From Phyllobates terribilis (taxonomy: Eukaryota), in assembly GCF_046119375.1 (NCBI RefSeq), contig NW_027362765.1, forward strand, positions 185,938,001-186,002,000: a DNA stretch of 64,000 nucleotides. The letters are read 5' to 3'. This document shows positions 10,710 to 56,155 of the stretch, in pieces. The translations under genes and the position numbers were made by a program. Position 1 is the first letter of the stretch. Each line of letters opens with the position of its first letter. The notes under the pieces were generated by a model. It searched no databases, was not told where the DNA came from, and saw nothing but the letters and a program-made list of their open reading frames with translations.

Positions 10710-10711
10710 GT

Positions 10712-10721
10712 TTGCTCGGGC
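10712..10721 (+). promoter_or_regulatory. Self-priming primer-binding site (not tRNA-derived)
   Basis: TTGCTCGGGC is complementary to GCCCGAGCAA at 9883-9892, 30 nt downstream of the TATA box; no TGG tRNA-type PBS is present. Confidence 0.8.
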
Positions 10722-10722
10722 C

Positions 10723-11673: not shown

Positions 11674-11715
11674 GTTCGCTCAGAGAGGTCCACCTAGACA
11701 AGAATAAATCCTCTC
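11655..11715 (+). promoter_or_regulatory. -1 ribosomal frameshift signal with predicted H-type pseudoknot
   Basis: G GGA AAC is in the gag frame; 5-nt spacer; stem 1 11667-11675/11692-11700; stem 2 GAGAGG 11683-11688 / CCTCTC 11710-11715. Confidence 0.8.
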
Positions 11716-22133: not shown

Positions 22134-22466
22134 CAAGTAAATTAGTATTTCATGTACCATTGCAGAGGATGCATTGAGAAAGAGAACTGCTAAAGTAGTA
22201 TGGGTAAATTTCTTCCCTTTTTTAAAAAAAACATTATAAATTATGATGTATGCTAGCCTCCATTGACTTGTGTGAGACAATGCATTTATTCTTTGTTCAT
22301 CTGTACACCTGATGAATAAATACTGACCTTAATAGTAAAAAAAAGATTAATAGTATTAACTTGTTCTATAAAAAAGAACGGTCAAGTATCCAATCTATCA
22401 ATACTATTAAAAGGCTATGCACACACACATTTCCTTATTGTTCATTTGCTTCCTAAACGGAATTAA

Positions 22467-33722: not shown

Positions 33723-36461
33723 AAAGTTGACGCGCCCCTGGGCCTGTGTCGCGCTGCGTTGCGCACGCGGGAGCTTACCCGGAGCCGGATCTGTTGAGGG
33801 TTGTAGTCTCGTGGCGGTGACCCGGTCCGTGCCCAGGGAGTCAAACTGAGCGGCGATGTATCAGCGGTAGATGTTGGACGACTACGCCACCCGTTGAGTA
33901 CAGCTAAGGAGCTGCTGCTGCAGGGCAGACCGCTGAGGCCGGTGGTAGGATTGTGCAGCGTGATAGTATAACCCCCAACGGGAGGGGTATGGCCTCAGGG
34001 CAGCCGACGTGGATGATGGGGGTAGCAGGAACCACTCGGAGACGGTACGGTGTAGTTCAGGGTCTTTACTGGTGACAAAGATAGACCCTCCCGGAGTACT
34101 GGCTAGCGATTGGGGCCTGGTCAGTCCTTGAGCAGATGGGATCTCCCCTGGCCAGGCGGAGTTGTAGGCCTCCCAAACTAACTGTACTCTTCTGGCTACC
34201 TTGCTAGAGGCGGGTATAAGTAGCCCACGTCCCTCAGTGTACCGTGTGGTGCTCACCCGTATGGCCGGTGACTCGGGGCCTTCGGGTTTCTTGGCCAGAG
34301 GACCTGGAATCCCCTGCCTGACGGATTCTGCTGCTGGGTAGGAGTTAGTCCCCACAGCCTCGGACTCCGGGTCCGGTAAGAAATCTTCTCAGTCAGGGCG
34401 AGCTCTGCAGCTGCCAGCCCCTGACTCCTTGTAACACTGCTCCCACAGAGCTCCTGATGTTCTGTTCCTATATTTGCTTCTTTTCTCTGTCTCTACTTCT
34501 TCTCTACTCACTAACCCTGCCTCAGCCCCAGTTTTATATAGGGGAAGTTCTTCCCCTCCCAGGACTGTGCAGGAGGTGTGGCATGCATAGGATTCCTGAC
34601 CAAGAGACCTCCCACCTGCTCTCAGACGTAATATCTCTATCACTGTGGCAACCAGACCCCTGGGGTGTCACAAATGCAGCAGGCCCCTGGATATACAGAC
34701 ATCTCAACTCCAGCCCATATTACATGGAAAGACCTTCCCACTGGAAAAAAAATCTGAAACTTGTATCAGACTGCACTGCATATCAGTGAGTCTGAAAATG
34801 AATGAAGGCACTAAGATTAAAGCTTAGTTCAATTTTATTAGTCAGAGGTCTTGCCATTTGCAATGGCAGACAGATATCCTGGCTACGGGAACAGTTGAAC
34901 ACTATTAGCAAACACAAGAATAGTTTTATTAACATTACGTCAGGGAGAAGTTTGCCAGAGCCATATTTCCCTAAGTGCCAGTTCTGATTAGAAGCACAAT
35001 GCACCCTCTCTGGCAGAGTAGGTTTTTTGAAGGAAAGGACATTTCTGTTATATCAGTTTCGGAAAGTCTTTGAGGCTGCCAAGATCTGAGATCAGTGTTC
35101 TGTTTTCTCGACCTCACTGGAGAGAACTAGCACCAAGAAACACCGTAGTCTCCCAGACCTTAGAAAGTTTCTTAAAACATAGTCGTGACATCACAGGGTT
35201 ATTTATATGCCATGTGTGATACCCTCTCCTCAGCCGTTGTAAAGAGTTGAAGAGGTTATCCAGCACTTTTTTTTTACTACGGTGCTAAGCACTTATCGGC
35301 CGGTAGTTGCTTTTTACCTGCCTGTGCTGCCCTGTGATAAACTTTTCCAGCTCAGAGCGGTAATGGACTGCGCCTGCCGGCAATTCTTCTGCTCCTGTGA
35401 CATCGACAGAGCAGCTTCTTCTCTTGCACTCTACTCTGAACTCTGAGGAAAGGGCTTCACTGCCAATGTCATGTTTTGATTGACAGCCAGGTGTCAATCA
35501 GCATGACATCAGTAGTAACACTCCATCGACAGGGCAGGAGAGAAGTGGCTGTTCCTTAGCCGCCTAGGAAAAAGAATAGTCCCAGATAATCCCAATAAGT
35601 AAATGTGCTGTCTCGTCTCAAAACAAGAGCTGACCTTTTTGTCTCAATATCATGGAGACCATCCTTTAATGTTATGTACTACTGAGAGGCTGGATGCTCA
35701 AATAACTGATGCAAGTCTGGAAGTCTGAACTATTCCTGTCAATTTAGGTTATTATAGAAGTTGTCTCGGAAGCTTTTTTCTTGCTTGTTTTTTATAACTC
35801 CTGCATTTTACGGTTATCGTTATGGTTGGCAAGTTTTACTATACATTTCTAAGTAGATGGATGGATGTACTCACCAGACATTACATAGTTGTTATACATT
35901 GTGGGTAAAATAAATATTGTGCCAGAAAGCCTATCAGTCCCATAGTATTACAAGTAGTGTTGAGCCACCCCCGTAGTGTTCGAGTTTGGTTCGGTTCGTC
36001 GAACACCCGTGTGTTCGCCGAACTGTTCGTCGAACTGTTCGTCGAACACCTTCGAACACCGTTAAAACCAATGGCAGGCAAACAAAAACACATAGAAACA
36101 CATAGAAAACACCTTCAAAGGTGTCCAAAAGCTGACAAACTGCTCAGAAGACACAACTAACACATGGAAAAGTGACAAGTACATATAGTCATGCGAAAAG
36201 AAAAGAGGTGGAGGAGTAAAAGGAGGGGGAGACACAGATATAGGCATGTCATGCCCTTCTAAAATCCAAAAAGTGAGAAGCCGACACGTTCAGTCCGCTC
36301 CTGCCCGTGCCACCTCCGTGTCGCCGGGTTTGTGCCAGAGCCGCGGTGAACCCTGACGGCCAGCCCCCCTCTCCCAATACTGGTGCCTGTCCGCTGGTGG
36401 GTCGAGCGAGCCCCCCTGTGGTGGAGGCAGCTCTAAGCTTTTTAATTTAAATTGTCTCTCT

Positions 36462-36727
36462 AATTTGAATAAATACACTTTAAATCCATTTACAAGGATC
36501 TATTGGAGGGCAAGTCTCATGCCAGCAGCCGCGTAATTCCAGCTCCAGTAGCGTCCACTAAAGCTGCTGCAGTTAAAAAGCTTTTATAAGGATCGAGCTC
36601 GGCTGTCCACCGCAAGGCATCCTACTGCCAGTCCGAGCCCCTATGCCTTGGGGTGCCTCCTGATGCTCTTCACTGAGTATCCCGTGGTCCCGAAGCATTT
36701 CCTTTGAAAAAATGAAGTGTCCAAACT
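36462..36727 (+). pseudogene. 18S rRNA: 18S rRNA gene fragment (530-loop through V4), decayed
   Basis: CACTTTAAATCC..ATTGGAGGGCAAGTCT..TGCCAGCAGCCGCG-TAATTCCAGCTCC..GCTGCAGTTAAAAAGCT..GATGCTCTT..CCCGAAGC..CTTTGAAAAAAT is collinear with vertebrate 18S. Confidence 0.92.
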
Positions 36728-36834
36728 ACAGGTGGTGTAGCTTGCTTAACAGCCGGGATAATCCGCTGACTAGCAGACCCTGCTACTAGGCACAAAGTAT
36801 TTCCTGGGCTAGATGCAGTTAAAAATTTGTATTT

Positions 36835-38655
36835 AGATACTCTCGTTGGATGCTGAGAAAGCATTCCATAGAGTCTCCTGGCACGCCATATATGATTCTC
36901 TTAAAAAGCTTGGGGTAGGGGTCTAGGGGACCCTTTTATAGCCAAAATCACGGCCCTGTATCGCAATACGTCACCTAGGCTGAAGATAAATGGAACTGTA
37001 GCACCCTGAGGGCTCGGTTGCTACAGAGGTATTGCACCTCACCCAGAGGTGTGATATCTCACTCTCAGGTAAGGATGTAGTGTGGATCAGGACCCGACAC
37101 CTGCATGCATTACACCACATTGCCGTGGGGCAGGGCGACCAATATGCCCCTGAGATGGGCACGACAGTCCCTGTCCCTGGCTGGAGTGGGGGGAGGGAAC
37201 ACTGAGGAAGGGGAACCCTGTAGTGCAGGAGCAGGGAGGAAGCAGTTCCTGGGTGCATTGAGAAGGGAGTATAAAAGGTGGGCACCATCTTAGTTCAGTG
37301 CAGAGAAGTCTGAGCAGAAGTGGCAGGGAGCAGGGGCTCTGCATGAGCTCTGCTCCGGAGGCGGGCCTAGTAACAGAGGCCCAGGCCTGGAAGAGGGAGA
37401 AGGAAGGAAGAGGAGCGGAGAAGGCTCCAGGAACGAGGAACGAAGGGATCTCAGGGGTGCGGACGGGCGAGTCGCCACCGCACGCCCGAATCCACCTGCG
37501 TGGAGGGGTCAGGCCAAAGGGGGAGACCGCTCCCCGAAACTAGTGGAGGCAGGAAACGACCCTCAGCTAGAAACAGGAGGCTGTGACATTTTATGTGGCG
37601 CAGCCCCTCGCTACACCCGCTAGGAAGGCACCACATAGGGTCAGGGAAACTGGCGCCAAGTTTACCAAGAGGAGGCCCGAGGCAGCCGGACAGAAGGGTT
37701 GGTAAGAAAGGCCAGACAAAGGACACACAAAGGAGGTCCTGTGAAGCACTCCAAAGTTATCTGGGAGTTGTCTGAGCCCCTCACCTGGTGAGCACAGTAC
37801 GACGTGGGCAGCCGTTACCTGCAGACGTGGTCTGGATAATAAGAACTGTGAGTAAAGGCCCTGGACTGCATCACTGACTCCGTGTCGTTACTGCTGCTGC
37901 CCTGCACCATCACCCCCATCCTCCGCATACACTGCCCTGAGGCTATACTCCTCCCGTGGGGAGTTATGCTACGCTCTGCTGCACCCACAACACCAGCCTC
38001 AGCGGTCTGCCCTGGAGCGGCGGTTCACTCTGACCGCAATCCACGGGTGGCGTAGTCGGACATTTAAACATCAAAACCACATAAATAGTTCCGCCACTGG
38101 TTTGACCGCCCTGAGCCACGGAACCGGGTTGCCGCCACGGAGACTACAACCACCAGCATCCACCAAAAAGGGTCCGGCTCCGGGTGTCCCAAGGCCCAGG
38201 GGGCGCGTCAGAACATTTTCATCACCTTTCACAATCACCAATGGGACAAGGCAGGGATGTTCTCTGTCCCCTCTCTTATGCATCCTAGTGACGGAGCACC
38301 TGCTCTCATCAATTCGCCATAACCCCAATATTAGGTGGATTGAGGTGGGAGGCACCGAGTACAAGTGCTCTCTATTTGCTGATGATGTCCTAGTATATAT
38401 CACTCAATCACATATATCCATCCATGCTGTTATGGCTGAAATAGATCACTTTGTTACATGGTCAAATTTTAAAATCAATGCAGCGAAGTCTGAGGCCCTC
38501 GATGTCTCCCTCCCCAAATCCATATAGGATTCCATCCAGTCCAACTTTCCCTTTGCCTGGCCCTCACAGGGTATCAAATACTTAGGAATTCCTATTCATA
38601 GAGACCTCTCCCATCTATGTTATCTTAATTTTGGGCCCTTTATTGAACAACTCCA
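36835..38655 (+). mobile_element. L1/Tx1-type LINE RT fragment, split by a solo LTR
   Basis: LSLDAEKAF.RVSW before the LTR; ITNGTRQGCSLSPLL, SLFADDV, FKINAAKSE and IKYLGI after it. Confidence 0.88.
36997..38210 (+). mobile_element. Solo LTR, diverged relative of the tRNA-Ser Gypsy family
   Basis: TGT...TCA termini; TSD GAAC (36993-36996, 38211-38214); shares CCTCAGCGGTCTGCCCTG, CGGGTGGCGTAGTCG and GGGTCCGGCTCCGGG with 21135-22133. Confidence 0.88.
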
Positions 38656-38732
38656 TACAGACCACGGTTGGCAAGTTAGAACTGTAAGATTCACTACGTG
38701 AACCACTGGTGTTTTGTGGAAAAGCACATGTA

Positions 38733-40095
38733 CACTGTGTTCCAAATTATTATGCAAAAAGTGTTTAGGAGTGATAAGGGAAGAATTTGTTTGTTTGTCA
38801 GTTAAACTCATTGATAGTGATGTGTGTCAGGGCTCTTTATATCACTGTAAGCAATTGCAGACACCTGTGGTAATTAGTTTGGCAGGTGTGTCCAATGAAA
38901 GGCAAGACTACTTAAGAAGTCTGTCTCACATTATTAAGCAGCCTACATTTTCTGCCAAAATGGGAAAGAAAAAGGATGTGTCGGCTGCTGAGAAGCAACA
39001 AATTGTGGAGTGTTTAGGTCAAGGCATGACTACAATCAACATTGTGCGATGATCAGGATGAAGTGTCTTGGCAATCAAGAAGTATGTAGCTGATTCACAG
39101 TACACACGTGTGCATGCTGATAAGGGCAAATTGAGGACTCTTTCCTACAGGCAATTACGTCAGGTTGAAAGAGCAGCGGCAAAAAAGCCTTGTCATAGCA
39201 GCAGACAAGTTTTTGAAGCTGCTTGTGCCTCCAACGTCCCCCGAACAACAAGATGCAGGGTCCTTCAGAGGTTTGCAGCTGTGCATACGCCATCCTGTCG
39301 ACCTCCTCTATCCACTTCACACAAGCAGAAACGGCTCCAGTGGGCCAAACATTACATGAAGACTGATTTCAAAACTGTTTTGTTCACGGATGAGTGCCGT
39401 GCAGCGCTCGATGGTCCAGATGGATGGAGTGGAGGATGGCTGGTTGATGGACACCCCACGCAAACACGGCTACAGCGCCAACAAGGAGGAGGTGGAGTAA
39501 TGTTTTGGGCTGGAATCATGGGGAGAGAGATTGTCGGCCCCTTTAGGATCCCTGAAGGCGCTAAAGATGAACTCCATAATGTATGTGGATTTTCTCAAAC
39601 AGCACTTCCTGCCATGGTTCAAGAAGAAGAACCGTGTATTTCACAGCAAGATCATTTTTCTGCATGATAATGCACCATCTCATGCTGCACATAAAACATC
39701 TGCATCTCTGGCTGATATGGGCATAAAAGGGGACAAACTTATAGTGTGACCCCCATGCTCCCCTGACCTGTACCCCATTCAGAACCTTTGGAGCATCATT
39801 AAAAGGAGTGTCTATGATGGCGGGAGGCAGTTCACATCTAAGCAACAGCTCTGGGAGGGTATTCTGTCCTCATGCAAAACAATTGAAGCAGAAACCATCC
39901 AAAACCTGACAAATTCAATGGACGAGAGAGTTCAGAAGCTCCTTTCGAACAAGGGGTCATATGTGAAAATGTAACATCACCTAGAATAAAGTTTTGAGTT
40001 GAAAACTGTTTGATTTCAGTTTCTAACAACCTGATAATGCTTATAATTTCAAAAATGACCATTTTTTTGGTCTTTATTAAAATGAAAAGGTTGAT
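38733..40095 (+). mobile_element. Tc1 element lacking its right TIR; transposase pseudogene 38960-39974
   Basis: TA followed by CACTGTGTTCCAAATTATTATGCA; MGKKKDVSAAEKQQIV, VLFTDECRAALDGPDGW, GGGVMFWAGI, HDNAPSHAA. Confidence 0.88.
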
Positions 40096-40542
40096 CGAAA
40101 AGTTTGGGGGATCTAAGAGTGTGGCAACCCAGTAGTCATGATTACTTCGAATTCTGACAATATGAGGGTCATGCTGCAGGTAGTGCAGCAAGAAGGCACT
40201 TATGTGTCTTGCGCATCTCGGAGCCCCAAAATTATTTTCCGGGCTAGATGCAGCTAAAAATTATTATTAATTTTAAATCTGGTGAAGCTTTAGTATAGAT
40301 GGCCTAATAGGATCAGTGCTGCACACTGCTACAAAGCCCAAATTATTTTCCAGTCAAGATACAGATAAACATGATTAGTAATTTTAAATCTGGTGGAGCT
40401 TATTATAGATGGCCTAATAGAATCAGTGCTGCACACTGCTACAAAGCCCAAATTATTTTCCAGCCAAGATACAGATAAACATGATTAGTAATTTGAAAGC
40501 TTAAAACGGTTGGTAGGGTGATTTTAACCAATCATCAAGCTT

Positions 40543-41917
40543 TTACTCTCCCCAGGATGACACAGGGGTAGAAAAGTCGTTTCGGATCCATGATTTGTTC
40601 ATCTTTATGAACGTGAGTCTGTCTACATTATCAGTGGAGATCCGCGTGCGCTTATCTGTCAGCACACCACCAGCAGCGCTGAACACACGTTCAGACAGAA
40701 TGCTGGCTGCGGGGCATGACAAGATCTCCAAGGCGTAAGTGGCTAGCTCCGGCCATTTATCCAGATTGGAAGCCCAAAAAGAGCAAGGGTCCAGTGACAC
40801 AGTCGTGGCTTCAATGTTTACTTGGAGATACTCCTGCACCATCGTCTCTAGGCGTTGACTATGTGTCAGACTTCTTGTCTCCTGTGGCCTTGCAAAGGAT
40901 GGGCTAAAAAAGTGGTGAAATGATTCCGCAAAATTGATGTTACCAGCAGATACTGTGGTTCTGTTACGGTTTGAGTGCTGAACACTTGACGGTCCCACGG
41001 TTGGCAAGTTGGAACTGTGAGATTCACTACGTGCACCACTGGTATTTTATGGAAAAGCACATGTAAGATTCTGCAACAGTCTCTGCTGATACTCCTGCAT
41101 GCGTGCATCCCTTTCTATGGCAGGAATAATTTCTGCAAATTTACTTTTGTACCGGGGATCTAACAGTGTGGCAACCCAGTAGTCAGGATTATTTCTAATT
41201 CTCACAATTCGAGGGTCATGTTGCAGGTAGTGCAGCAAGAAGGCACTCATGTGTGTTGCGCATCCAGGAGCACCAAGTCCCTGTTGTGTTGGTGGCGAGG
41301 TAACAATCATGCTTCCTTCCTCTGTCCTCTCCCCCCAACCTCGCACAACAGAAATGTGATCAAGGTCTCCCTCATCTGATGAGTCTTCCATCAGTTCGTC
41401 CTCCACTTCTTCCTGGGCTCCTGCACCTTCCTCACTAGTTTGGCTGCTACCATGCACCCTGGTAAAACCATCTCCCCCACCCTCACATGCCTGCCGCCTT
41501 GGTGCTGCCGACCGTCTGGACCTTGCAGATGTTAGCCCTTCCGCATACAACTCCTCCTCCTCTACTTCCTCCACCTCCTCTTGTGCCACCACCTGACTCC
41601 GAATTCTGTTTAACATGTGCTCCAGCATGTAAATCACCGGAATAGTCATGCTGATAATGGCATCGTCAGCACTAAACATCTTCGTCGCCATTTCAAAACT
41701 GTGCAGAAGGGTGCATAGGTCCCTGATCTGAGACCACTCCTCCAGCGTGATTTGCCCCACCTCTGGATCTCGTTGGCCCAGGCTATACGTCAGAACGTAT
41801 TGCACCAGGGCTTGTCGGTGCTGCCACAGTCGCTGCAACATGTGCAGAGTTGAATTCCACCGGGTAGGCACATCGCATTTTAGCCGGTGAAGTGGCAGGC
41901 CCAACGACTTCTGTAGA
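40543..41917 (-). pseudogene. hAT transposase, C-terminal part
   Basis: CDVPTRWNSTLHML, ATLLDPRYK and dimerisation domain FWASNLDKWPELATYALEILSCPAASILSERVFSAAG; one in-frame TAA at 41047-41049. Confidence 0.93.
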
Positions 41918-43041
41918 GATGTTGCAGCGCCGGCGTCCCTGCCCTCTGCTAGGCAGGGACGCTGTTCCCCTCACCTCTCTGCTCCGTGCCCGGCGTCCTC
42001 CTCCCGCTCTGCTGGCAGCGCGCGCTCCTTCCCGGCCACTGTGCTTAGGGCGCGCGCGCTCTCCCTCCCTCTTAAAGGGGCCGCGCGCGCCGTCCTAAGG
42101 AGTCCCCGGCCAATGGCCGGAGGACTTCACCATATATAAGGCAACTCCTCCAAAATGGAGGTGCCCGAGCAATGTTGTTGCTGTCTTATTCCTGCCTGAT
42201 ATTCTGCTACCTGCCTGCTAGCCTGAGGTCCGACGGTCTGCCTTACTACTCCTGTCAGTCTGTCTAAGGACCAGCTTGCCCGCTCACCTGGGAGCGCACA
42301 TCAACTACCTGCCTGCTTGCCTGAGGTCCGACGGTCTGCCTTCCAACTCTTGTCAGTCTGTCTATGGACCAGCTTGCCCGCTCACCTGGGAGTGCACATC
42401 TGCTACCTGCCTGCTAGCCTACCTGGAGGCTCTGCCGTCACGTGCTGTGACCACCTGCCTGTCCAGTGACTCCTGCCCGCTCACCTGGGAGCGCTCATCT
42501 GCTGCCTGTCTGCTAGCCTACCTGGAGGCTCTGCCGTCACGTGCTGTGACCACCCGCCTGTCCAGAGACTTCTGCCCGCTCATCTGGGTGCGCTCATCTG
42601 CCGCCTGTCTGTTGGTCTTCCTGGAGGCTCCGCCGTCACATGCTGTGACCACCCGTTTATCCAGAGACTCTCGCCTGCTCACCTGGGAGCTCACGTCTAC
42701 CATCAGCCGCCACAGGTCGTACCAACCCTTTACTCAGAGACTACCCCGGTCACTTGCCGTGACCATCTGCCCGTTCACCCAGAGACTGCCCCGGTCACTT
42801 GCCGTGACCATCTGCCCGTTCACCCAGAGACTGCCCCGGTCACTTGCCGTGACCATCTGCCCGTTCATCCAGAGACTGCCCCGGTCACTTGCCGTGACCT
42901 CCTGCCCGTTCTTCTAGAGACTGTCCCGGTCACCTGCTGTGACTGCCTGCCTGGTCGCCACCCGCTCCCTTACAAGGACCGCCCCCTTGTATAGTAGCTC
43001 AGAGGTTCCGCCTCCCAGACCCGTTACAGTTTGCTCGGGCC

Positions 43042-43980
43042 ATGGAACCCGGTGGCACCCATACTCCCTCGCTCTCGGACCTGTGTCATGAACTGTCCCG
43101 TCAGAGGTCCCAACAGGAGTCCATCCTGGGTCACCTGCGGAATGTCAATTCTCGCCTGGACACTCTGACTGCTCCGCCAACAACCTCCGCCAGTGCCATG
43201 ACTCGCAATCCGGCAGCTCCGCTGTCCACTAATACCATGGTATCCTACCCTGGACCCCGGCTTTCTGCACCTCCTCGCTTCGGAGGCGACTCCGCCCAGG
43301 CTCAGGGCTTCATAAATCAGTGCACCCTGCACATTGAACTCCTGTCCCACCAGTTTAACTCCGACCGGGCCAAAATTGCCTTCATCATGTCCCATCTCAC
43401 CGGGGAGGCCCTGGCCTGGCTAAATCCTCTATGGGAGAGAGGAGACCCCCTGGTGTCCGACTTGCCTGCCTTTCTCATGGCTTTCCGGAAAGTCTTCGAC
43501 GAACCCGGACGGAAGACCTCATCCGCATCATCACTGCTACGCCTCCGTCAGGGAAGTCTCACCGTGGGCCAATATGCCATACGGTTCCGTACCCTTGCCT
43601 CGGAGCTGGCCTGGGATAACGACGCTCTGGTATCCGTCTTCTGGGAGGGTCTGTCCGGCCGTATTAAAGATGAACTTGCCGGTCGGGACATTCCTACCAC
43701 TCTCGATGACCTAATAACTCTTGCCACCCGGATTGACCTACGGTTCCAGGAGCGTGCCAAAGAGGTCACCCGTGAGAGGAGGTTTCCACGTCTAGCTCCT
43801 ACTTTTCAGAAATCCGTCTCTCCCCAGGTACACTCTCCTGAGCCTATGCAGGTCGACCAGACCAAGATGGTCAAAACCCGTCAGGACTTACGCCGTGCCG
43901 AGGGGAGCTGCTTCTACTGTGGTAGTAAGGAGCACCGGATCTGTGCCTGCCCGGAGAGGTCGGGAAACGCCTGTGTCTAG
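43042..43980 (+). CDS. gag: Gag of copy 2, 312 aa
   Basis: Nearly identical to the copy 1 gag, with a short in-frame deletion near the C-terminus; CCHC knuckle intact. Confidence 0.95.
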   Translation: MEPGGTHTPSLSDLCHELSRQRSQQESILGHLRNVNSRLDTLTAPPTTSASAMTRNPAAPLSTNTMVSYPGPRLSAPPRFGGDSAQAQGFINQCTLHIELLSHQFNSDRAKIAFIMSHLTGEALAWLNPLWERGDPLVSDLPAFLMAFRKVFDEPGRKTSSASSLLRLRQGSLTVGQYAIRFRTLASELAWDNDALVSVFWEGLSGRIKDELAGRDIPTTLDDLITLATRIDLRFQERAKEVTRERRFPRLAPTFQKSVSPQVHSPEPMQVDQTKMVKTRQDLRRAEGSCFYCGSKEHRICACPERSGNACV

Positions 43981-46900
43981 GTTCGCTCAGAGAGGTCGAC
44001 CTAGACAAGAATAAATCCTCTCCATCTCTGCTGCTGTCAGTCTCAATCGTCTGCGGGGAGAACCGTTATTTCGAACTAGCCCAACTTGACTCTGGAGCAG
44101 CCGGGAATCTTATTTCACAGTCCCTGGTAGAGAAATACCGCATCCCCACCAAACCTCTGGCTGTACCCTTGTCTGTTGCTGCCGTGGATGGGGGTCTCTT
44201 ACCACGCCCCATCCAACTCATCACCGAATCCATTACTCTGCAGGTGGGAATGCTGCATTCTGAGAGTATCTCCTTTCATGTTCTGCCTGGACTCTCTCAC
44301 GCCCTCTTGCTAGGTCTACCTTGGCTCCAGAGACATGCACCCGTGCTTGACTGGCAGACCGGAGAAGTCCTTCGCTGGGGACAGGACTGCCATAAGACCT
44401 GTCTGGTTCCCGTCCATCCCGTCCGTCCTTCTCCTACCCCAGCTAATCTACCTGGACTTCCGATTCCTTATTGGTCTTATGCTGATGTCTTTAATAAAAA
44501 GGAGGCAGAGACACTACCCCCTCATAGACCATACGACTGCCCTATCGACCTGTTACCTGGTACTACTCCTCCCCGTGGGCGTATTTATCCATTATCCACT
44601 GCTGAGACCCGGTCGATGTCCGAATATATTGAGGAGAATCTGGCCAGGGGATTCATCCAGAAATCTACCTCCCCGGCGGGAGCAGGCTTCTTTTTCGTCA
44701 AAAAGAAGGACGGCTCTCTCCGTCCCTGTATAGACTATAGAGGCCTTAACCAGATCACGGTGAAGAATAAGTACCCCCTTCCGCTCATTCCGGAGTTATT
44801 TGATCGTCTGAGGGGGGCTAGAATCTTCACCAAACTGGACCTCCGTGGGGCGTACAACCTGGTTCGTATCCGTCAGGGGGATGAATGGAAGACGGCATTC
44901 AACACCCGGGACGGCCACTATGAATATCTGGTAATGCCCTTTGGTCTCTGTAACGCTCCTGCCGTCTTTCAAGAGTTGGTCAATGACATCTTCCAGGACC
45001 TTCTCTACTCCTGCGTAGTGGTGTACCTGGACGACATCTTGGTCTTCTCTCCGGATCTCCAGACTCACCGGAGGGACGTTCGTCAGGTTCTGCTCAGGCT
45101 CAGGCAGAATCACCTCTTCGCTAAATACGAGAAGTGCCTCTTTGAGCAGACCTCGCTTCCGTTTTTGGGCTACATTATTTCTCAGACCGGCCTACGAATG
45201 GATCCAGAGAAACTGTCTGCCATCGAGAAATGGCCTCGACCGGAGGGGTTGAAGGCCATTCAGCGGTTCCTGGGCTTCGCCAACTACTACCGCCTCTTCA
45301 TACCGCACATCTCTTCCCGGACTGCCCCAATTTCCGCGCTCACCCGTAAGGGTACTAATCCCAAAGAGTGGCCGCCCGAAGCAGAGGAGGCCTTTCTTTG
45401 CTTAAAACAGGCCTTCTCTTCCGCCCCGGTGCTGCATCGCCCGGACGTCAACAAGCAGTTCTTCCTGGAAGTTGACGCCTCCTCCTCTGGAGCCGGAGCG
45501 GTACTTACTCAAAAATCATCTTCCGGGAGGATGGTAACTTGCGGCTTCTTCTCTAAACTCTTCTCCTCCTCAGAGCGCAATTATTCCATAGGAGACCGAG
45601 AGTTATTGGCCATCAAACTGGCATTGGAGGAGTGGCGTTACCTGCTCGAGGGGGCTCTTCACCTGGTAATAATTTACACTGACCACAAGAACTTGGCTTA
45701 CCTCCAGCATGCCCAGAGACTTAACCCGCGCCAAGCCCGGTGGTCCTTGTTTTTTGCTCGCTTTGATTTTGTTCTTCATTTTCGCCCGGCTGACAAAAAC
45801 GTCAAGGCGGACGCCTTGTCTCGATCCTTTCTGGTGTCTGATCTCGAGGAAGATCCGAAACACATCATCGATCCCGCCAGAGTAATGCAGGTGGCTCCCG
45901 TGAGTCTAAATCGTCTCCCTCCCGGAAAGACGTTCGTATCAGTACCTGATCGGGAGAAGATCCTTCACTGGGGTCACTCGTCTAAACTGGCTGGCCACGC
46001 CGGTCAGAAAAAGACCCTCCAGCTTATTACCCGGCACTACTGGTGGCCTACCCTGCACAAGGACGTAATAGACTTTGTTTCTGCCTGTGTGTCCTGCGCC
46101 CGCAACAAGGTTCCGAGACATCTGCCAGCCGGTCGCCTCCTTCCGCTTTCTGTACCTGCTGCCCCCTGGCAGCATATAGCAATGGACTTTATAACTGACC
46201 TCCCAGTCTCTGCCGGTTGTACGGTCATTTGGGTGGTCGCTGACCGCTTCTCCAAGATGGCTCATTTCGTTCCCCTGCCAGGCCTCCCGTCTGCACCCGA
46301 GCTAGCTAAAGACTTTATTCGTCACATCTTTCGTCTTCATGGCCTGCCCCTCCACATCGTGTCGGATCGTGGGGTACAGTTCACCTCACGCTTCTGGAGA
46401 GCCACTTGTAAACTGCTAGACGTCACCCTGGACTTCTCTTCCGCTTACCACCCACAGTCCAATGGTCAAGTGGAGCGGATCAATCAGAACCTGACCAGTT
46501 ACCTCCGGCACTTCGTTAATGCCCATCATTCAGACTGGGTGGATCTCCTACCATGGGCCGAGTTCTCTTATAACAATCACGAGAGCGAATCCTCCTCCAA
46601 ATCCCCGTTTTTTGTAGTCTTCGGTCAGCATCCTCGGATTCCTTTTCCTGTCTCCACCTCTGTGGACAACCCGGCTGCGGAATCTCTCGTTAGCAAATTT
46701 TCCTCCATTTGGGAGAGTACCCGATCCGCACTCCTTCAGTCGTCCGAACGGATGAAAAGACACGCTGACAAAAAACGCCTGGATCCTCCACAATTTCGTC
46801 CTGGAGATAAAGTCTGGCTCTCATCTAAATATGTCCGACTCAAGATACCTTCTTACAAGTTAGGGCCTCGGTTCATCGGTCCTCTGGAGGTCATCAGTCA

Positions 46901-47387
46901 GATCAACCCGGTGGCCTATAAATTGAAACTCCCGGCCAACTTACGGATCCCTAACTCCTTCCATGTATCTCTCCTCAAACCTGTGGTACTTAACTCTTTT
47001 TCCAAGTCTACAGGTACGCCTCCTGCTCCGGTTTCTGCTGAGGACGAGTTTGAGGTAGAGAACATTCTTGCCACCAAAAGGGTAAGAGGAAAGACCTTTT
47101 TTCTAGTAGATTGGAAGGGGTTTGGTCCTGAGGAGAGAACGTGGGAGCCCCGGGAGAACATCCATGCCCCGCTCATCCTTGCTAAATTTCTGTCTGGCCT
47201 AAAAAAGGGGGGGCCTAAAGGGGGGGGTACTGTAGCGCCGGCGTCCCTGCCCTCTGCTAGGCAGGGACGCTGTTCCCCTCACCTCTCTGCTCCGTGCCCG
47301 GCGTCCTCCTCCCGCTCTGCTGGCAGCGCGCGCTCCTTCCCGGCCACTGTGCTTAGGGCGCGCGCGCGCGCTCTCCCTCCCTCTTAA
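43962..47387 (+). CDS. pol: Pol of copy 2 (PR-RT-RH-IN-chromodomain), via -1 frameshift
   Basis: GGGAAAC at 43962-43968; the -1 frame is open to 47387; same motifs as copy 1. Confidence 0.95.
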   Translation, partial: GKRLCLGSLREVDLDKNKSSPSLLLSVSIVCGENRYFELAQLDSGAAGNLISQSLVEKYRIPTKPLAVPLSVAAVDGGLLPRPIQLITESITLQVGMLHSESISFHVLPGLSHALLLGLPWLQRHAPVLDWQTGEVLRWGQDCHKTCLVPVHPVRPSPTPANLPGLPIPYWSYADVFNKKEAETLPPHRPYDCPIDLLPGTTPPRGRIYPLSTAETRSMSEYIEENLARGFIQKSTSPAGAGFFFVKKKDGSLRPCIDYRGLNQITVKNKYPLPLIPELFDRLRGARIFTKLDLRGAYNLVRIRQGDEWKTAFNTRDGHYEYLVMPFGLCNAPAVFQELVNDIFQDLLYSCVVVYLDDILVFSPDLQTHRRDVRQVLLRLRQNHLFAKYEKCLFEQTSLPFLGYIISQTGLRMDPEKLSAIEKWPRPEGLKAIQRFLGFANYYRLFIPHISSRTAPISALTRKGTNPKEWPPEAEEAFLCLKQAFSSAPVLHRPDVNKQFFLEVDASSSGAGAVLTQKSSSGRMVTCGFFSKLFSSSERNYSIGDRELLAIKLALEEWRYLLEGALHLVIIYTDHKNLAYLQHAQRLNPRQARWSLFFARFDFVLHFRPADKNVKADALSRSFLVSDLEEDPKHIIDPARVMQVAPVSLNRLPPGKTFVSVPDREKILHWGHSSKLAGHAGQKKTLQLITRHYWWPTLHKDVIDFVSACVSCARNKVPRHLPAGRLLPLSVPAAPWQHIAMDFITDLPVSAGCTVIWVVADRFSKMAHFVPLPGLPSAPELAKDFIRHIFRLHGLPLHIVSDRGVQFTSRFWRATCKLLDVTLDFSSAYHPQSNGQVERINQNLTSYLRHFVNAHHSDWVDLLPWAEFSYNNHESESSSKSPFFVVFGQHPRIPFPVSTSVDNPAAESLVSKFSSIWESTRSALLQSSERMKRHADKKRLDPPQFRPGDKVWLSSKYVRLKIPSYKLGPRFIGPLEVISQINPVAYKLKLPANLRIPNSFHVSLLKPVVLNSFSKSTGTPPAPVSAEDEFEVENILATKRVRGKTFFLVDWKGFGPEERTWEPRENIHAPLILAKFLSGLKKGGPKGGGTVAPASLPSARQGRCSPHLSAPCPASSSRSAGSARSFPATVLRARARALPPS

Positions 47388-48420
47388 AGGGGCCGCGCGC
47401 GCCGTCCTAAGGAGTCCCCGGCCAATGGCCGGAGGACTTCACCATATATAAGGCACCTCCTCCAAAATGGAGGTGCCCGAGCAATGTTGTTGCACTGTTC
47501 ACTACTCTGCTTCAGCCCTCAGGTCCCGTTGCCAGTTACCTGCCAGATACCTGCCAGATTCCTGCCAGCTTGCTGTCTTATTCCTGCCTGATATTCTGCT
47601 ACCTGCCTGCTAGCCTGAGGTCCGACGGTCTGCCTTACTATTCCTGTCAGTCTGTCTAAGGACCAGCTTGCCCGCTCACCTGGGAGCGCACATCAACTAC
47701 CTGCCTGCTTGCCTGAGGTCCGACGGTCTGCCTTCCAACTCTTGTCAGTCTGTCTATGGACCAGCTTGCCCGCTCACCTGGGAGCGCACATCTGCTACCT
47801 GCCTGCTAGCCTACCTGGAGGCTCTGCCGTCACGTGCTGTGACCACCTGCCTGTCCAGTGACTCCTGCCCGCTCACCTGGGAGCGCTCATCTGCTGCCTG
47901 TCTGCTAGCCTACCTGGAGGCTCTGCCGTCACGTGCTGTGACCACCCGCCTGTCCAGAGACTTCTGCCCGCTCACCTGGGAGCGCTCATCTGCCGGCTGT
48001 CTGTTGGTCTTCCTGGAGGCTCCGCCGTCACATGCTGTGACCACCCGTTTATCCAGAGACTCTCGCCTGCTCACCTGGGAGCTCACGTCTACCATCAGCC
48101 GCCACAGGTCGTACCAACCCTTTACTCAGAGACTGCCCCGGTCACTTGCCGTGACCATCTGCCCGTTCACCCAGAGACTGCCCCGGTCACTTGCCGTGAC
48201 CATCTGCCCGTTCACCCAGAGACTGCCCCGGTCACTTGCCGTGACCATCTGCCCGTTCATCCAGAGACTGCCCCGGTCACTTGCCGTGACCTCCTGCCCG
48301 TTCTTCTAGAGACTGTCCCGGTCACCTGCTGTGACTGCCTGCCTGGTCGCCACCCGCTCCCTTACAAGGACCGCCCCCTTGTATAGTAGCTCAGAGGTTC
48401 CGCCTCCCAGACCCGTTACA

Positions 48421-50747
48421 GATGTAAGTCGCTGAGCTGCGGGATGCGAACGGCGAAAGTGAGCACACAGCGACCGTGCCCTCTGCAGAAGGCCATCTAG
48501 TCTGGGATAGTGGGCTAAAAATTGCTGGACAACCAGGTTCAACACGTGAGCCATACAAGGCACGTGTGTGACATTGCCCCGGCGAAGGGCCGCACCCAGG
48601 TTTGCAGCATTGTCGCACACGGCCTTCCCTGGTTTCAGGTCCAGTGGAGACAACCATTCATGAAATTGGTTCTCCAGAGCTGACCACAACTCCTCAGCTG
48701 TGTGACTCACATTTCCCAGACATTTCAATGTAAAAACCGCCTGATGACGTTGAGCCCTACTGCCAGCATAGTAAGGAGGTGTGCAGGATCCCTTCTGCGC
48801 AGTTAGAAAGCTTGTGGCATGACCAGACAGGCTTTGGGTGCAGGTGGAAGACCGAGAGGAGGTTGAGGAGGCAGAAGCAGTGGAGGAACTTTGACATAAA
48901 GAGGATTGACGCACAACTCGTGGGGACGGCAAGACTTGGACAGCAGCCCCTTGTCCTGCTGTCACCATAGTTACCCAGTGCCCAGTCAGCGACATGTAAC
49001 GCCCCTGTCCATGCCTACTCGTCCAAGTGTCTGTGGTGAAATGCACCCTGTCACACACAGAGTTTCTCAAAGAAGCGGTGATGTTGTGTGCGACATGCTG
49101 GTGGAGCGCAGGCACACCTTTCTTTGAGAAGTAGTGCCGACTGGGCATCTGGTACTGGGGCACTGCGACGGACATAAGGTCTCGAAAATCCTCTGTGTCC
49201 ACCAGGCGGAAAGGCAGCATTTCTGTAGCCAAGAACTTGCAGATGGTGAAATTCAACCTCTTAGCTTTCTCATGGCTAGGAGGAAATGGTCTTTTACTTG
49301 TCCACATCTGAGGGACCGAAGGCTGGCTATTGTGCTTAGACGGGGTTGATAAGGGTGTCCCCGGCAAACTGCCGGTCTGTGAGGAAGATGCAGGCGGACA
49401 TGTTAGGTTGCCTTGATCCAAAGGTGGTGCTATCGATGTCGGACAGCGCTCAACACCAGCTGGTGTTACCACCTCCAAAGAAAATGATGACCTGCCAATC
49501 ACGCTGGCTGTTGCGGGTAAAGAGGTGGCAGGTCTGCGCCCCAAAACAGGTGTGACTGCTGTCCCCCCAGTCACAGAGGATGAAGAGGCCGCGGATGCAC
49601 AAGATATGGCAGACGGTGGTTGGCCCGGCCGGCTAGGCCGCATTGTAGCACACTGAGCTTCCCACTGCAACTTATGCTTCATGTCCATGTGCCGGTTCAT
49701 GCATGAAGTACTCAAACTATGTATTTTTTGGCCTCTACTTAGCTTTTGCTGACAAATATTACAGATAACACGAGTTGGGTCATCTTTATCGATCTGAAAA
49801 AATGCCCAGGCTATGCAAGGCTTAGCACCCATGCGACCTCAAGAGCCACCACGACTTGTGGTGAGAGGCAGAGTTGTGTTTGAGGATGCAGTTGTTGACG
49901 TGCTTCCAGTACTACGTCTCTGTCCAGGAAGGCACAACCTGACCTCGTCGTCACTAGCATCTTCCTCCACCTCCTCTGCTGACCTCATCTCTTGGCTGAC
50001 TGTGGGTTGACAGTAAGTGGGATCTCCAACCTCATCATCATCACCCTGTGCGTTATCACACCCGTCGTCCTCAGAGCCAACCTGTTCCTGCCCTGACAAA
50101 AAACTAAAGTTGTCGCTCCAATCAGGTATTTGAGTCTTATCATCGTCTTCCTCATTGTCTCCACCAACAGGAGTTACAGTTTGGGAATGAGGGTCTACAT
50201 TATGGTCAGAACCTTCTGCGACTGGTCCTGGATCCGACTCATAAAGATTCTGGGCATCAGTGCAGATCATTTCCTCGTCTGGATTCACAGAAGCGCTGGA
50301 GTCGACCTCTGATTCCCAGGCTATAGTATGAGTAAACAGCTCTGCAGACTCAACCATCTGTTCTACCTCATACTCAGACGGGCAGCTGGAGATTTGGGAG
50401 CTGTGAGGAAGCAAGTGCGATTGGGGTGACACCTTTGAGGACTGGAGTATTTGTGATGTTGAAGTTGATGTGGAGGAGAGCCCACTTAAAGGAGCACTTG
50501 ATATCCGTTGAAGCACCTGCTGTTTTTGTGCCTCATCTGGAATTTGTAGCGATTGGCGTGGCCGTAAGAAAGGGATCTTATCACATTGTCCGCTAAAAGA
50601 AGTAGACATTTTAGTTTGGCTGGAAGATGGTCTTTCTTCTGCAGATGTTACTGTTGCTTTAACACCTACCCCACGGACACAACCTTTTTTCCCCTTCCCA
50701 ACACGCCTATTCCCCTTTCCACCAGCAGCAGGCCTTTTTCCACTCAT
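48421..50747 (-). pseudogene. hAT transposase, N-terminal part (acidic region, BED finger, catalytic domain)
   Basis: AWAFF..VICNICQQKL..MNRHMDMKH, LATEMLPFRLVD, PSRHYF, FTTDTWTS, CDNAANL, PCMAHVLNLVVQ; one in-frame TGA at 49839-49841. Confidence 0.93.
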
Positions 50748-50865
50748 TTTGGTGGTTAACTAATTAACAACTCTGGAGTTGTTTGCACAAAAAAACAATG
50801 GATGGGAACCGAGCAGAGCTGAGTGGCCAAACTGTGGTATTAGGCCAAAACTATTGGCTGGGTTA

Positions 50866-53200
50866 GATGCAGAAAAAAATTATATTCAATTTGCAACCTG
50901 ATGGAGGTCAGTATAGATGGACTAATAGAGAAAGTCCCACACACTGCTAGAAGGCCAAATATTTTTTCAGAGCTAGATGCAGAAAAAAATATATTCAGTT
51001 TGCAACCTGATGGAGGTCTGTATAGATGGATTAATAGAACAAGTCCCACACACAGCTAGAAGCCCAATATTTTTTCAGAGGTAGATGCAGAAAAAAATAT
51101 ATTCAGTTTGCAACCTGATGGAGGTCAGTATAGATGGACTAATACAACAAGTCCCACACACAGCTAGAAGCCCAATATTTTCTCAGAGGTAGATGCAGAA
51201 AAAAATATATTCAGTTTGCAACCTGATAGAGGTCTGTATAGATGGATTAATAGAACAAGTCCCACACACAGCTAGAAGCCCAATATTTTTTCAGAGGTAG
51301 ATGCAGAAAAAAATATATTCAGTTTGCAACCTGATGGAGGTCAGTATAGATGGACTAATACAACAAGTCCCACACACAGCTAGAAGCCCAATATTTTTTC
51401 AGAGGTAGATGCAGAAAAAAATATATTCAGTTTGCAACCTGATGGAGGTCTGTATAGATGGATTAATAGAACAAGTCCCACACACAGCTAGAAGCCCAAT
51501 ATTTTTTCAGAGGTAGATGCAGAAAAAAATATATTCAGTTTGCAACCTGATGGAGGTCAGTATAGATGGACTAATACAACAAGTCCCACACACAGCTAGA
51601 AGCCCAATATTTTTTCAGAGGTAGATGCAGAAAAAAATATATTCAGTTTGCAACCTGATGGAGGTCTGTATAGATGGATTAATAGAACAAGTCCCACACA
51701 CAGCTAGAAGCCCAATATTTTTTCAGAGGTAGATGCAGAAAAAAATATATTCAGTTTGCAACCTGATGGAGGTCAGTATAGATGGACTAATACAACAAGT
51801 CCCACACACAGCTAGAAGCCCAATATTTTTTCAGAGGTAGATGCAGAAAAAAATATATTCAGTTTGCAACCTGATGGAGGTCTGTATAGATGGATTAATA
51901 GAACAAGTCCCACACACAGCTAGAAGCCCAATATTTTTTCAGAGGTAGATGCAGAAAAAAATATATTCAGTTTGCAACCTGATGAAGGTCAGTATAGATG
52001 GACTAATACAACAAGTCCCACACACAGCTAGAAGCCCAATATTTTTTCAGAGGTAGATGCAGAAAAAAATATATTCAGTTTGCAACCTGATGGAGGTCTG
52101 TATAGATGGACTAATACAACAGGTCCCACACACAGCTAGAAGCCCAATATTTTTTCAGAGGTAGATGCAGAAAAAAATATATTCAGTTTGCAACCTGATG
52201 GAGGTCAGTATAGATGGACTAATACAACAAGTCCCACACACAGCTAGAAGCCCAATATTTTTTCAGAGGTAGATGCAGAAAAAAATATATTCAGTTTGCA
52301 ACCTGATGGAGGTCTGTATAGATGGATTAATAGAACAAGTCCCACACACAGCTAGAAGCCCAATATTTTTTCAGAGGTAGATGCAGAAAAAAATATATTC
52401 AGTTTGCAACCTGATGAAGGTCAGTATAGATGGACTAATACAACAAGTCCCACACACAGCTAGAAGCCCAATATTTTTTCAGAGGTAGATGCAGAAAAAA
52501 ATATATTCAGTTTGCAACCTGATGGAGGTCTGTATAGATGGACTAATACAACAAGTCCCACACACAGCTAGAAGCCCAATATTTTTTCAGAGGTAGATGC
52601 AGAAAAAAATATATTCAGTTTGCAACCTGATGGAGGTCAGTATAGATGGACTAATACAACAAGTCCCACACACAGCTAGAAGCCCAATATTTTTTCAGAG
52701 GTAGATGCAGAAAAAAATATATTCAGTTTGCAACCTGATGGAGGTCAGTATAGATGGACTAATACAACAAGTCCCACACACAGCTAGAAGCCCAATATTT
52801 TTTCAGAGGTAGATGCAGAAAAAAATATATTCAGTTTGCAACCTGATGGAGGTCTGTATAGATGGATTAATAGAACAAGTCCCACACACAGCTAGAAGCC
52901 CAATATTTTTTCAGAGGTAGATGCAGAAAAAAATATATTCAGTTTGCAACCTGATGGAGGTCTGTATAGATGGATTAATAGAACAAGTCCCACACACAGC
53001 TAGAAGCCCAATATTTTTTCAGAGGTAGATGCAGAAAAAAATATATTCAGTTTGCAACCTGATGGAGGTCTGTATAGATGGATTAATAGAACAAGTCCCA
53101 CACACAGCTAGAAGCCCAATATTTTTTCAGAGCTAGATGCAGAAAAAAATTATATTCAATTTGCAACCTGATGGAGGTCAGTATAGATGGACTAATAGAA
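50866..53200. repeat. 108-bp tandem array (~22 units) inside the hAT element
   Basis: Unit GATGCAGAAAAAAATATATTCAGTTTGCAACCTGATGGAGGTC...CAGAGGTA; lines 540 bp apart (51061, 51601, 52141, 52681) start identically, giving 5 x 108. Confidence 0.97.
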
Positions 53201-56155
53201 TGATGCTATGCCCAAAAGATTTTACTTCACTAGGTGCAGTAAAAAAATTGGTATTCTATACACAGGTGGTATATCTTGCAACACAGATAGGCTACTCCAC
53301 TGACTAACACACTCTGCAATAGGCCAAAAAGGATTAGCTTTGCTAGATTCAGCCAAATGCTGTGAAAAAAACTTGCACAGCACTGGCACAGACCTGCCTG
53401 GCAAAAACTGATAGGAACTGATGTAACCTAGTCCTGAAAAGGACTGCAATTACAATTAGTCTTTACTCCCACAATCTATCTATTTAAGAGCACAGACCTG
53501 CCTGATAAAAATCGTAGGAAATGCTGTAACCTAGTCCTTAAAAGGACTGCAATCACAACTATTCCCTACTCCCAAGCTATCTGTAGATTTGTGCGAAAAT
53601 TGGCTTGAAATTAACAAGGTATAGCGCACACAGCAACAGCGGTGCCGTCTAACACGCAGCTGCAGCAGTGAGAAAATGGTGGCGACGGGGAAAATGGCTT
53701 GGTCTTATAGGGCAAGGACATGTGACATACACTGCCAATGACACATGCCCTTGCTTGTGTGAAAAAAAGCACTTCGCTCCGTGTGTGCGCTGCTGATAGG
53801 CTGACAGATTGCACCTCCCCACTGTAAATGCGGGAAAGAGAAAAAAAAAATGGAGATCTTCATTGTTCCTGCAGAGATCCATCCCCTGCCCCTCCCCCCA
53901 CCCCGCTGTACACTCAAACTGCGTATTAACATTAATTTTCATCATTACTGAGAAAAAATCCAGTTATGATTTTGGTGCACGAACAGTTATCGAACATAAC
54001 CTCGAACAGCCGAATTTTTCTCAAATTGTTCGTGTTCGCCGAACGGCTCGAACACCGCCCAAAACAGCTCGAATTTGAGATTGGCGAACAGTTCGAGTAG
54101 AACAACGCTCATCTCTAATTACAAGTCCCAAGATTTCTGCTCTGAACCACCGGGATACTTGTGGCTGCCAGTGCCCAGCCCACTAGAACCAATGGTGGTT
54201 GACAGCTAAACATGTTCTCAATTTTGGAAGAAAAACAATATGGTCTGGAGGCAGCAGGTGTATATATACAGTATGTGATCATTTTGTAGCAAGTCCAATC
54301 TATCGAGCAATTCAATATCAACTAAACAATGTAAAACCTTTTTTAATACTTTGTCCAAAAATACTGTATCATCCAGCCATAACCCCCAAAAACAAAGCCT
54401 ATTTTGTCACTACAGACTATAGGAATTTTTGCGCTTTCTGTTGCTTTTCTATCTGTTCATCGGTTACATGTAACTGATTAACTTTTAATAACACTTTCTT
54501 TCTTATCCTTGACGTCCTGGAAAAAAAAAAGCAATTTAATTATTTTTTTGTTGCGTTTTGATTTTTGTGCCATTTTCTATAAGTCATAAACAACACATAA
54601 CCTTTATTCCACTGGCTAGTACAGTTAAAATGATACCAAATGTATAGTTTTCTTGTTTTACTTCTTCATATACAGATAGCTCAGATCGTGGGCAAAAAAA
54701 AGTTTACACTTCAAGGGCCATATATATTTCATTTCTGGACATCAAAAACTCATCAACACTTTTCGATATAATTGTGAGCTGGGGCTCAATCTTGCAATCT
54801 CTTGTTTTTTGTAATTTTTTTTTGATGGCACACAGTGTGATTTACAGGGAACCTGTAAAGGGGACTTAACCCCCTAACATATTAAAAGCTCTTTATCAGC
54901 TTCCTAATAAGGTTTTTTGTTAGCCCCTTATTATATCTAGTAATTGCTGAAGCTTGTTCACATATTATGTTTAATCCTGGCTTGTGCACATGGACTAGTC
55001 AATTGATCTGAGGCCATTGTGACTTATCTCTGCAGGTCGGCCAGTATTATGCCCACAGAGGTCTGATTGGCATCCCAGCATGTGTAGGGAGGAGAAAAAG
55101 AGGGACTAATTCTCCTCCTCCCTGCACATTATGGGATGGCAATCTGCTGTTGTAGTGGTGCTAGAAAACTGCAGGGATGAGTGACGCCTGTCTTGGACCA
55201 GTCTGGGTACATGCGCCTGGATTTAACAATATTTTTACATAAACTGCGCAATGATTTGATATAATAAAGGAACATTAAAATAATATTAGAAAGCTGAGAA
55301 AGTGCTCCTAATTTATTATAGGGGTAAATCCTTTTGAAAGGTTTTATTTAAATACATTATACAATACCATATACATGTAGTTGGTTTTGAGATTTTTCAC
55401 AATAAAACCGTATTTTTTGCGAAAAATGTGTCATTTTTTTACTGTTCCACTTTTTTTTTAACATATATGCAGCTTAGTTAAAGGGATTTTTTTATAGTTG
55501 ACATGCCACTTCAGGGTATGCCCGTCAAGTTGTCAATATAGCATGCGCCATATATGCCTTATCAAGATTTAACATTTTAGGTCAAGTTTTCTACATCCTA
55601 AATCTGTTTTCTTTCATCTGCCTTCAGACTGGGTCATGCCATAACAAGACTTCTCACCATGATTTTTCTACAGGTCGATTCTACTGAATGTTTCATGCAA
55701 AAATGATGGTAAAACACACTGATTGCTCATATTAAAGGTAATTAAGCTTAACTTATCCTCATGGGCGTAGTCTCACTTTGATACAAGTAATGAAAATTAC
55801 ACATGATACATACGGAGCAACCCAAATGTTTGTACACACAACAGACTGCACAACAAAGGTGTTTAGATCATCTGTCGAATATCGAAAAGCAAGGTATTAA
55901 AATATCTTCAGGGATTGGGATTAAAAGCTAGAAGTATGAATTAACCAGGTTTTGACTGCATAACAGATGGGTGTGTTCTAAATATAAAGCTGGTTATTAT
56001 GTATAAAAAAGATAGTATTTTATATCTATAGAGCAGGATATCTATAGATAGGAACATTTTTGGAAATGATGTGGTCACTGATGTGGAATCTGGATCAATC
56101 AAGCAGAGATGTGTAAATAAATAAGTAGACTGCTTACTGCCTGCACCCCCATGTA

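Follow-up and report, generated by a model that had tools for sequence, protein, structure and literature searches.

A stretch of 64,000 nucleotides from the frog Phyllobates terribilis (contig NW_027362765.1, positions 185,938,001 to 186,002,000; hereafter the window, in whose numbering positions are given) contains a hAT DNA transposon that encloses pieces of ribosomal DNA (rDNA), retroelements, a further transposon and tandem arrays. An earlier note on this DNA had taken it for a cargo-capturing hAT lineage that moves host RNA-gene and retroelement pieces, and the question raised by the locus is whether such pieces travel with the transposon or were inserted after it had landed. Our analysis indicated, with a probability of about 86%, that the element belongs, as a broken copy, to a young and very abundant frog hAT family bearing a fixed block of rDNA and dead mobile-element pieces, that this block was gained stepwise and copied as neutral passengers, and that Tx1-type long interspersed elements (LINEs) sit mostly in this cargo.

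The element (35955–54117) comprises 18,163 bp between two copies of the 8-bp target-site duplication (TSD) ATTACAAG on the forward strand (35947–35954 and 54118–54125), and its 11-bp terminal inverted repeats (TIRs), TAGTGTTGAGC and TAGAGATGAGC, are imperfect (9/11 identical), which confirmed the boundaries proposed earlier. Without a Gypsy retrotransposon nested in it, its length is 11,660 bp. The left terminus (35955–36276) consists of the 11-bp imperfect TIR, 12-bp subterminal repeats and hAT backbone, and the right terminus (53198–54117) of a 103-bp repeat, subterminal motifs and the TIR. Short TIRs starting with YAR together with 12-bp subterminal repeats are hallmarks of hAT elements, as are the 8-bp TSD, present in the window copy, in 12 of 15 complete copies of subfamily A and in 10 of 11 copies of subfamily C, and a transposase having a BED finger, a DDE core, the CxxH motif and a dimerisation domain. 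The single-exon transposase gene (40543–50747, minus strand; zf-BED and hAT dimerisation domain in Pfam) is broken in the window copy by stops at 49839–49841 and 41047–41049 and by the Gypsy inside it.

The cargo block lies between the transposase stop and the left end. It starts with a 162-bp piece of the 5' external transcribed spacer (ETS) of rDNA (36277–36438, plus strand; 82% identical to host rDNA about 410–570 bp upstream of 18S), absent from the earlier inventory, and an 18S rRNA piece (36456–36725, plus strand; host 18S nt 559–838, 85% identical to host rDNA), with an Rfam SSU_rRNA_eukarya match at 36435–36554 (E 7e-14). After a single unit of the element's own 113-bp internal array (36726–36838), which is tandem in older subfamilies and related to the 110-bp array further along, there follows an internal scrap of an L1-type reverse transcriptase (RT; 36839–38660, plus strand; RVT_1, E 1e-14). 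This scrap is uninterrupted in copies that lack the solo LTR, and in the window copy it is divided (36839–36996 and 38211–38660) by a solo long terminal repeat (LTR; 36997–38206, TG..CA, 4-bp TSD GAAC). Next comes a partial transposase duplicate (38662–40229), made up of 38662–38732 (93%) and 40107–40229 (89%) with a Tc1 element between them; the Tc1 starts at 38733, after TA, shows a Tc3-type helix-turn-helix in Pfam and has lost its right end, no right TIR being seen at 40040–40110. The 110-bp array (40229–40498, 2.4 units) completes this side, and a 108-bp array of 21.6 units (50864–53197), whose length differs among copies, lies between the transposase gene and the right terminus. All the internal parts listed in the earlier note, namely the 18S piece, the L1 piece, the transposase duplicate and a tandem array, were thus found again.

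The family was then followed through the assembly (10.57 Gb), in which genome-wide counts are exact matches of short sequence patterns. A 25-mer with cargo-specific 18S changes gave 60,143 matches (reversed control, 0), a left-end 22-mer 82,584 and a transposase motif 73,260. Thirty-five copies, chosen by the 18S motif (the first 30 listed and five more) and all within the first 25 Mb of chromosome C1, were compared. A common left terminus about 550 bp upstream of the 18S motif was present in 33 of them, and in 33 the similarity ended precisely at the termini; the L1 piece followed downstream in 34, Tc1 sequence was present in 33, and the solo LTR in 31, with three clean empty sites and one copy cut earlier. 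Among the 15 copies with both ends visible, which had a mean length of 10.3 kb (about 10–11.7 kb for the family), 12 showed perfect 8-bp TSDs and three mismatched ones; the perfect TSDs represented 11 different words, all at different sites, and 11 of the 12 had T at position 2 and A at position 7. The 18S piece, the L1 piece and the array hence occupy common positions in copies with different TSDs, the test that had been proposed for this locus, and the cargo moved as a unit.

These comparisons also settled which inserts are local. The solo LTR and the Tc1, formerly regarded as later arrivals, turned out to be family-wide cargo, the filled LTR junction matching 40,432 times as against 4,141 for the empty one and the Tc1 junction 29,884 times; the LTR is inherited cargo of subfamily A1. 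The full-length Gypsy (41923–48420, plus strand; complete gag-pol in Pfam, 5-bp TSD GATGT) is indeed a later local insert, its site being empty in all 31 sampled copies that span it, and is the sole insert specific to the window locus. A second Gypsy of the same family, with identical LTR stretches, is located at 9594–15872 of the window. Another LTR family, which in part is 82% alike to the solo LTR of the cargo, occurs at 21135–22135, 26888–27834 and 33728–34672 as an element with two LTRs and a solo copy in inverted orientation, and LTR elements 65–75% alike to the cargo LTR have inserted repeatedly into hATs (six loci).

A second sample, unbiased by 18S, consisted of all 61 exact left ends in C1:0–14.2 Mb. 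Thirty-one were paired with the exact 18S motif, and the remaining 30 comprised 11 A-type copies with variant 18S, one A-type copy with a deletion, five copies of subfamily B, 12 of subfamily C and one truncated copy. After correction for inexact matches, A copies number about 75–80 thousand, and we estimate the family at 60–80 thousand copies of 10.3 kb, or 6–8% of the assembly, assuming that most are near full length. Family copies also occur within or beside one another, often in the array or the transposase (six loci). The composite was further detected in three sets of sequencing runs filed under other organism labels, perhaps related frogs or samples containing P. terribilis DNA; one contig covers 35955–38063 with 14 differences. 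One run that may be of RNA also gave coverage, which we did not read as expression.

To trace the origin of the rDNA pieces, they were compared with host rDNA, found via 5.8S. The ETS and 18S pieces have the same order and strand as in the host, with about 970 bp between them absent, and the 18S piece shares host-type letters with the P. terribilis 18S. The 18S piece has its first nine letters duplicated at the ETS/18S joint, and templated repair joints often show such short repeats. An older group of copies (3,322 exact matches) has 815 bp extra, which include an RT scrap (RVT_1, E 5e-5), presumably DIRS-like, and 380 bp of spacer; its 18S piece is 89–90% identical to rDNA, as against 85% in the window copy, and leads into the 113-bp array in tandem with no L1. 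An 815-bp deletion at 36272 shortened the ETS piece from the 380 bp of the older subfamilies. This subfamily structure gives the order of gains: RT scrap, ETS and 18S; the 815-bp deletion; the L1 piece and the block of transposase duplicate and Tc1; the solo LTR; and finally the local Gypsy.

Sister subfamilies have different fixed cargo. Subfamily B (seven copies) has kept the spacer and lost the 18S part, its transposase, truncated at the start, runs inverted with respect to the element ends, and it carries its own fixed 1.1-kb insert and a further open frame that we take to be tyrosine-recombinase-like; an LTR insertion at 41713 is common to several B copies. Subfamily C (11 copies) is palindromic (foldback), non-autonomous and 3.8–6.2 kb long with the same hAT ends, its TSDs are perfect in 10 of 11 copies, and it accounts for about one-fifth of the left ends in the sampled region of C1. 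The rDNA was acquired a single time, in an ancestor common to subfamilies A, B and D, and has been decaying since. Of the original proposal, therefore, the movement of RNA-gene and retroelement pieces by subfamilies differing in cargo was upheld, and dedicated or ongoing capture was not; the lineage is better described as "cargo-tolerant and cargo-amplifying" than as "cargo-capturing".

Capture during gap repair after excision, with template switching, is suggested by the short templated repeat where ETS and 18S meet and by internal fragments lacking tails or TSDs. The LTR and the Tc1 would have entered by true nested insertion, and the spread would have proceeded by cut-and-paste with the family's own transposase as the driver. 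We rejected the idea that the cargo holds a Pol I promoter: judged from a processing-site motif, it starts about 700 nt into the spacer. Spacer, 18S, 5.8S and most of 28S also occur, with decayed elements, in a dispersed repeat of more than 55 kb that is 98.6–99.7% alike between chromosomes (C3:819,545,000–819,600,000; C10:2,428,000–2,484,000; C15:27,051,000–27,100,000; parts on C2 and C5); its apparent ends are LTR insertions, and it may be a giant element or a segmental duplication.

Seven hAT copies were broken directly before 36537, and two rDNA units were broken at the same base. The inserted sequence is a LINE of 8–9 kb with two open reading frames (ORFs), ORF2 having APE, RT and zf-RVT domains, and from this domain layout we take it to be of Tx1 type. 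Its target is 18S nt 641, in rDNA and in transposon cargo alike; in the 18S piece of the window copy this site, between 36536 and 36537, is unoccupied. Several LINE subfamilies, only 70–84% alike, share the target base, and Xenopus, Pelobates, Bufo and Leptobrachium have relatives, those of the first three genera being 46–75% alike. Among the first 30 of 184 matches to the 3' end of one LINE subfamily, which were taken with the target ignored and are situated outside the rDNA clusters, on C1 and C2, the same 18S letters followed the 3' end in all 30, of which 29 were in hAT cargo and one in a stray scrap. In total, 579 LINE junctions carried hAT-type 18S letters as against 27 of rDNA type (about 95% hAT-type). 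Nineteen of these 27 lie in two rDNA clusters, and three of six dispersed ones that were checked were actually hAT. The clusters (C10:208.9–209.7 Mb and C25:14.2–14.4 Mb) are made up of irregular units about 95% alike, of which many carry deletions or this LINE in their 18S, and may be decayed arrays.

At one locus in these clusters, L261, the LINE sits in an rDNA unit (95% identical over 1.5 kb upstream) and about 25 letters of hAT-type 18S stand before it; hAT-type letters likewise precede the LINE in an old D copy. Because uninserted D copies show intermediates of the letter variant seen at L261, this variant likely arose in the hAT. The LINE head would replace the letters upstream of the cut at a new insertion: the hAT-type letters before the LINE in the rDNA unit suggest that it is likely transcribed together with a short stretch of 18S, by which the new target is then overwritten. 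Only 5 of the 29 hAT-hosted insertions are in A1, though A1 is ten times commoner than A0, and 31 of 36 A1 copies differ five bases ahead of the LINE cut, by a 1-nt deletion or a change; either age or target loss could suffice to explain the low load of A1. We offer as a tentative extension that the DNA transposon captured the site of an 18S-specific LINE clade and multiplied it tens of thousands of times, that the LINE moved from rDNA into the transposon and returns transposon letters to rDNA, and that A1, the youngest and most successful subfamily, spread after the 1-nt deletion had lowered parasitism, which would amount to a three-way arms race between rDNA, transposon and retrotransposon within 6–8% of the genome.

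Alternatively, the LINEs might be hAT-targeting Tx1 elements, comparable to Tx1L and Tx1-Mar, which recognise the 18S part and spill into rDNA. The predominance of hAT-type junctions and the hAT-type letters in the head of one LINE subfamily would agree with this, and Tx1 families aimed at DNA transposons are described in the accessible part of the literature (PMC4494074). However, the divergence among LINE subfamilies using the same base, together with that of the frog relatives, makes the lineage look older than the cargo, and the LINEs are also found in rDNA units and stray 18S scraps; we regard such an origin as unlikely.

An open transposase frame of 1,226–1,233 amino acids was retained in six of the 35 sampled copies, the intact genes encoding about 1,233. 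The protein matched the Hermes structure (E 3e-19) over an alignment spanning the second D, CxxH, W and E regions; the first catalytic D is presumably the residue that we assigned by its motif. It shares the BED finger, catalytic region and dimerisation domain with Hermes and Ac-family transposases and is 35–50% identical to frog "ZBED4/6-like" proteins, but differs from Hermes and Ac in about 300 extra acidic N-terminal residues, and the element in its internal 108–113-bp arrays. With intact transposase genes in natural copies, the family would qualify as autonomous. Divergence from the majority sequence was about 0.7–1.2% in most parts of A1 (18S 1.2%, ETS 1.9%) and 1.1–2.8% in A0, and at non-CpG positions it was 1.0% for 18S and 1.7% for ETS versus 0.6–0.9% for L1, LTR, Tc1 and transposase. 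On these values the cargo decays neutrally, at the background rate, and the 18S piece is no more conserved than its neighbours; selection on it was rejected, its divergence not being below theirs. The dN/dS ratio was about 1 among the six intact copies, that is, within the burst, and 0.42–0.67 between subfamilies, as expected if selection acts only on transposing lineages.

These values also bear on the idea that the 18S piece, possibly with the ETS, was kept as useful, be it as a promoter, a silencing shield or a source of antisense RNA against rRNA. Its occurrence in all main subfamilies, save where rearrangement removed it, and its antisense orientation to the transposase speak for such a role; nevertheless, beyond the lack of conservation, helix letters have changed, two deletions cut the piece and subfamily B spread without the 18S part, so that we judge utility very improbable. 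That the copies are products of segmental duplication, or that some other element moved them and the TSD is incidental, is scarcely credible, for although the genome has large dispersed duplications, one of them over 55 kb and with rDNA, and some hAT copies are tandem, similarity stops at the termini in 33/35 copies, 12/15 have their own perfect TSD, T2/A7 recurs in 11/12 and intact transposases exist.

Several points nonetheless weigh against a mobile family with fixed, neutral cargo that houses the LINEs. The 35-copy sample was selected by the 18S motif and comes entirely from the first 25 Mb of C1, and only 43 of the 61 left ends in the second sample were of cargo-type A, the others being B, palindromic C or truncated. 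TSDs were mismatched in three of 15 complete copies, and interrupted, tandem or nested copies are numerous. It is likely that the assembly contains too few rDNA units, so that the 579:27 ratio is inflated, and the C10 rDNA units, about 95% identical to other units, may be dead. A cargo-free ancestor was not found, so that the capture step itself, whose template may have been DNA or RNA, is not seen.

Among known systems, the closest is hobo_AC of Anolis carolinensis, in the accessible part of its description a young autonomous hAT of 9–15 kb with 290 copies and fragments of other transposons (PMC3014272). There, too, foreign DNA swells the element, lineages differ by gain and loss, and passenger copy number is raised. 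The frog family differs in its at least 60,000 copies, in nested insertions with TSDs (LTR, Tc1) within the cargo and in a cargo that is the target of a site-specific LINE, and the part of that report available notes no rDNA cargo. Like Pack-TIRs, the frog element holds within its TIRs a host-derived piece of identifiable parent (ETS and 18S from host rDNA) and has multiple copies with distinct TSDs; it works like them and is nearer to hobo_AC. In the available text on multicopy Pack-TIRs, such as the frog Pack-hAT-N8_XT, hAT ends likewise mobilise a host piece with distinct TSDs, and gap-filling and template-switch models are applied (PMC8277862). Those elements, however, are rare in animals, short and non-autonomous with three to five copies (four multicopy cases in the survey), whereas the frog hAT is 10–11.7 kb long, encodes a transposase itself and is more numerous by four orders of magnitude. 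MER6, as far as its accessible description goes, is similar in that the burst of a DNA transposon dispersed a retroelement piece which it had captured, and different in being a small non-autonomous Mariner miniature inverted-repeat element with a short interspersed element domain (PMC6887750). Tx1L in Tx1D, Tx1-Mar and Keno are APE-type LINEs each with one exact multicopy target, known targets including DNA transposons and RNA genes (PMC4494074, PMC4640811, in part); the frog LINE is distinguished by its target at 18S nt 641 in both rDNA and transposon cargo. No hAT or rDNA passage was found in the accessible part of a review of giant transposons (PMC6431247), and that of a poison-frog genome paper gives 255 Mb of hAT without structure (PMC6278860). 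The literature covered, mostly without subscription journals, Repbase and supplements, described neither a hAT with rDNA as cargo nor a Tx1 that targets 18S. R7 and R8 are 18S-targeting LINEs of other clades.

A cargo-laden hAT was thus already known from hobo_AC, and what merits attention here is the scale, the presence of rDNA among the passengers and the LINE clade that this rDNA houses. A single autonomous DNA transposon family with about 4 kb of passengers is estimated to make up 6–8% of a 10.6-Gb genome. Since the passengers were amplified by the hAT, the tens of thousands of young-looking L1, LTR, Tc1 and 18S copies reflect hitchhiking and not activity of their own, and repeat landscapes, rDNA copy estimates, 18S probes and rRNA annotation are at risk of being misread in such frogs. 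The cargo also constitutes a natural experiment, in which the target of a LINE has been copied out of rDNA turnover into tens of thousands of dispersed sites.

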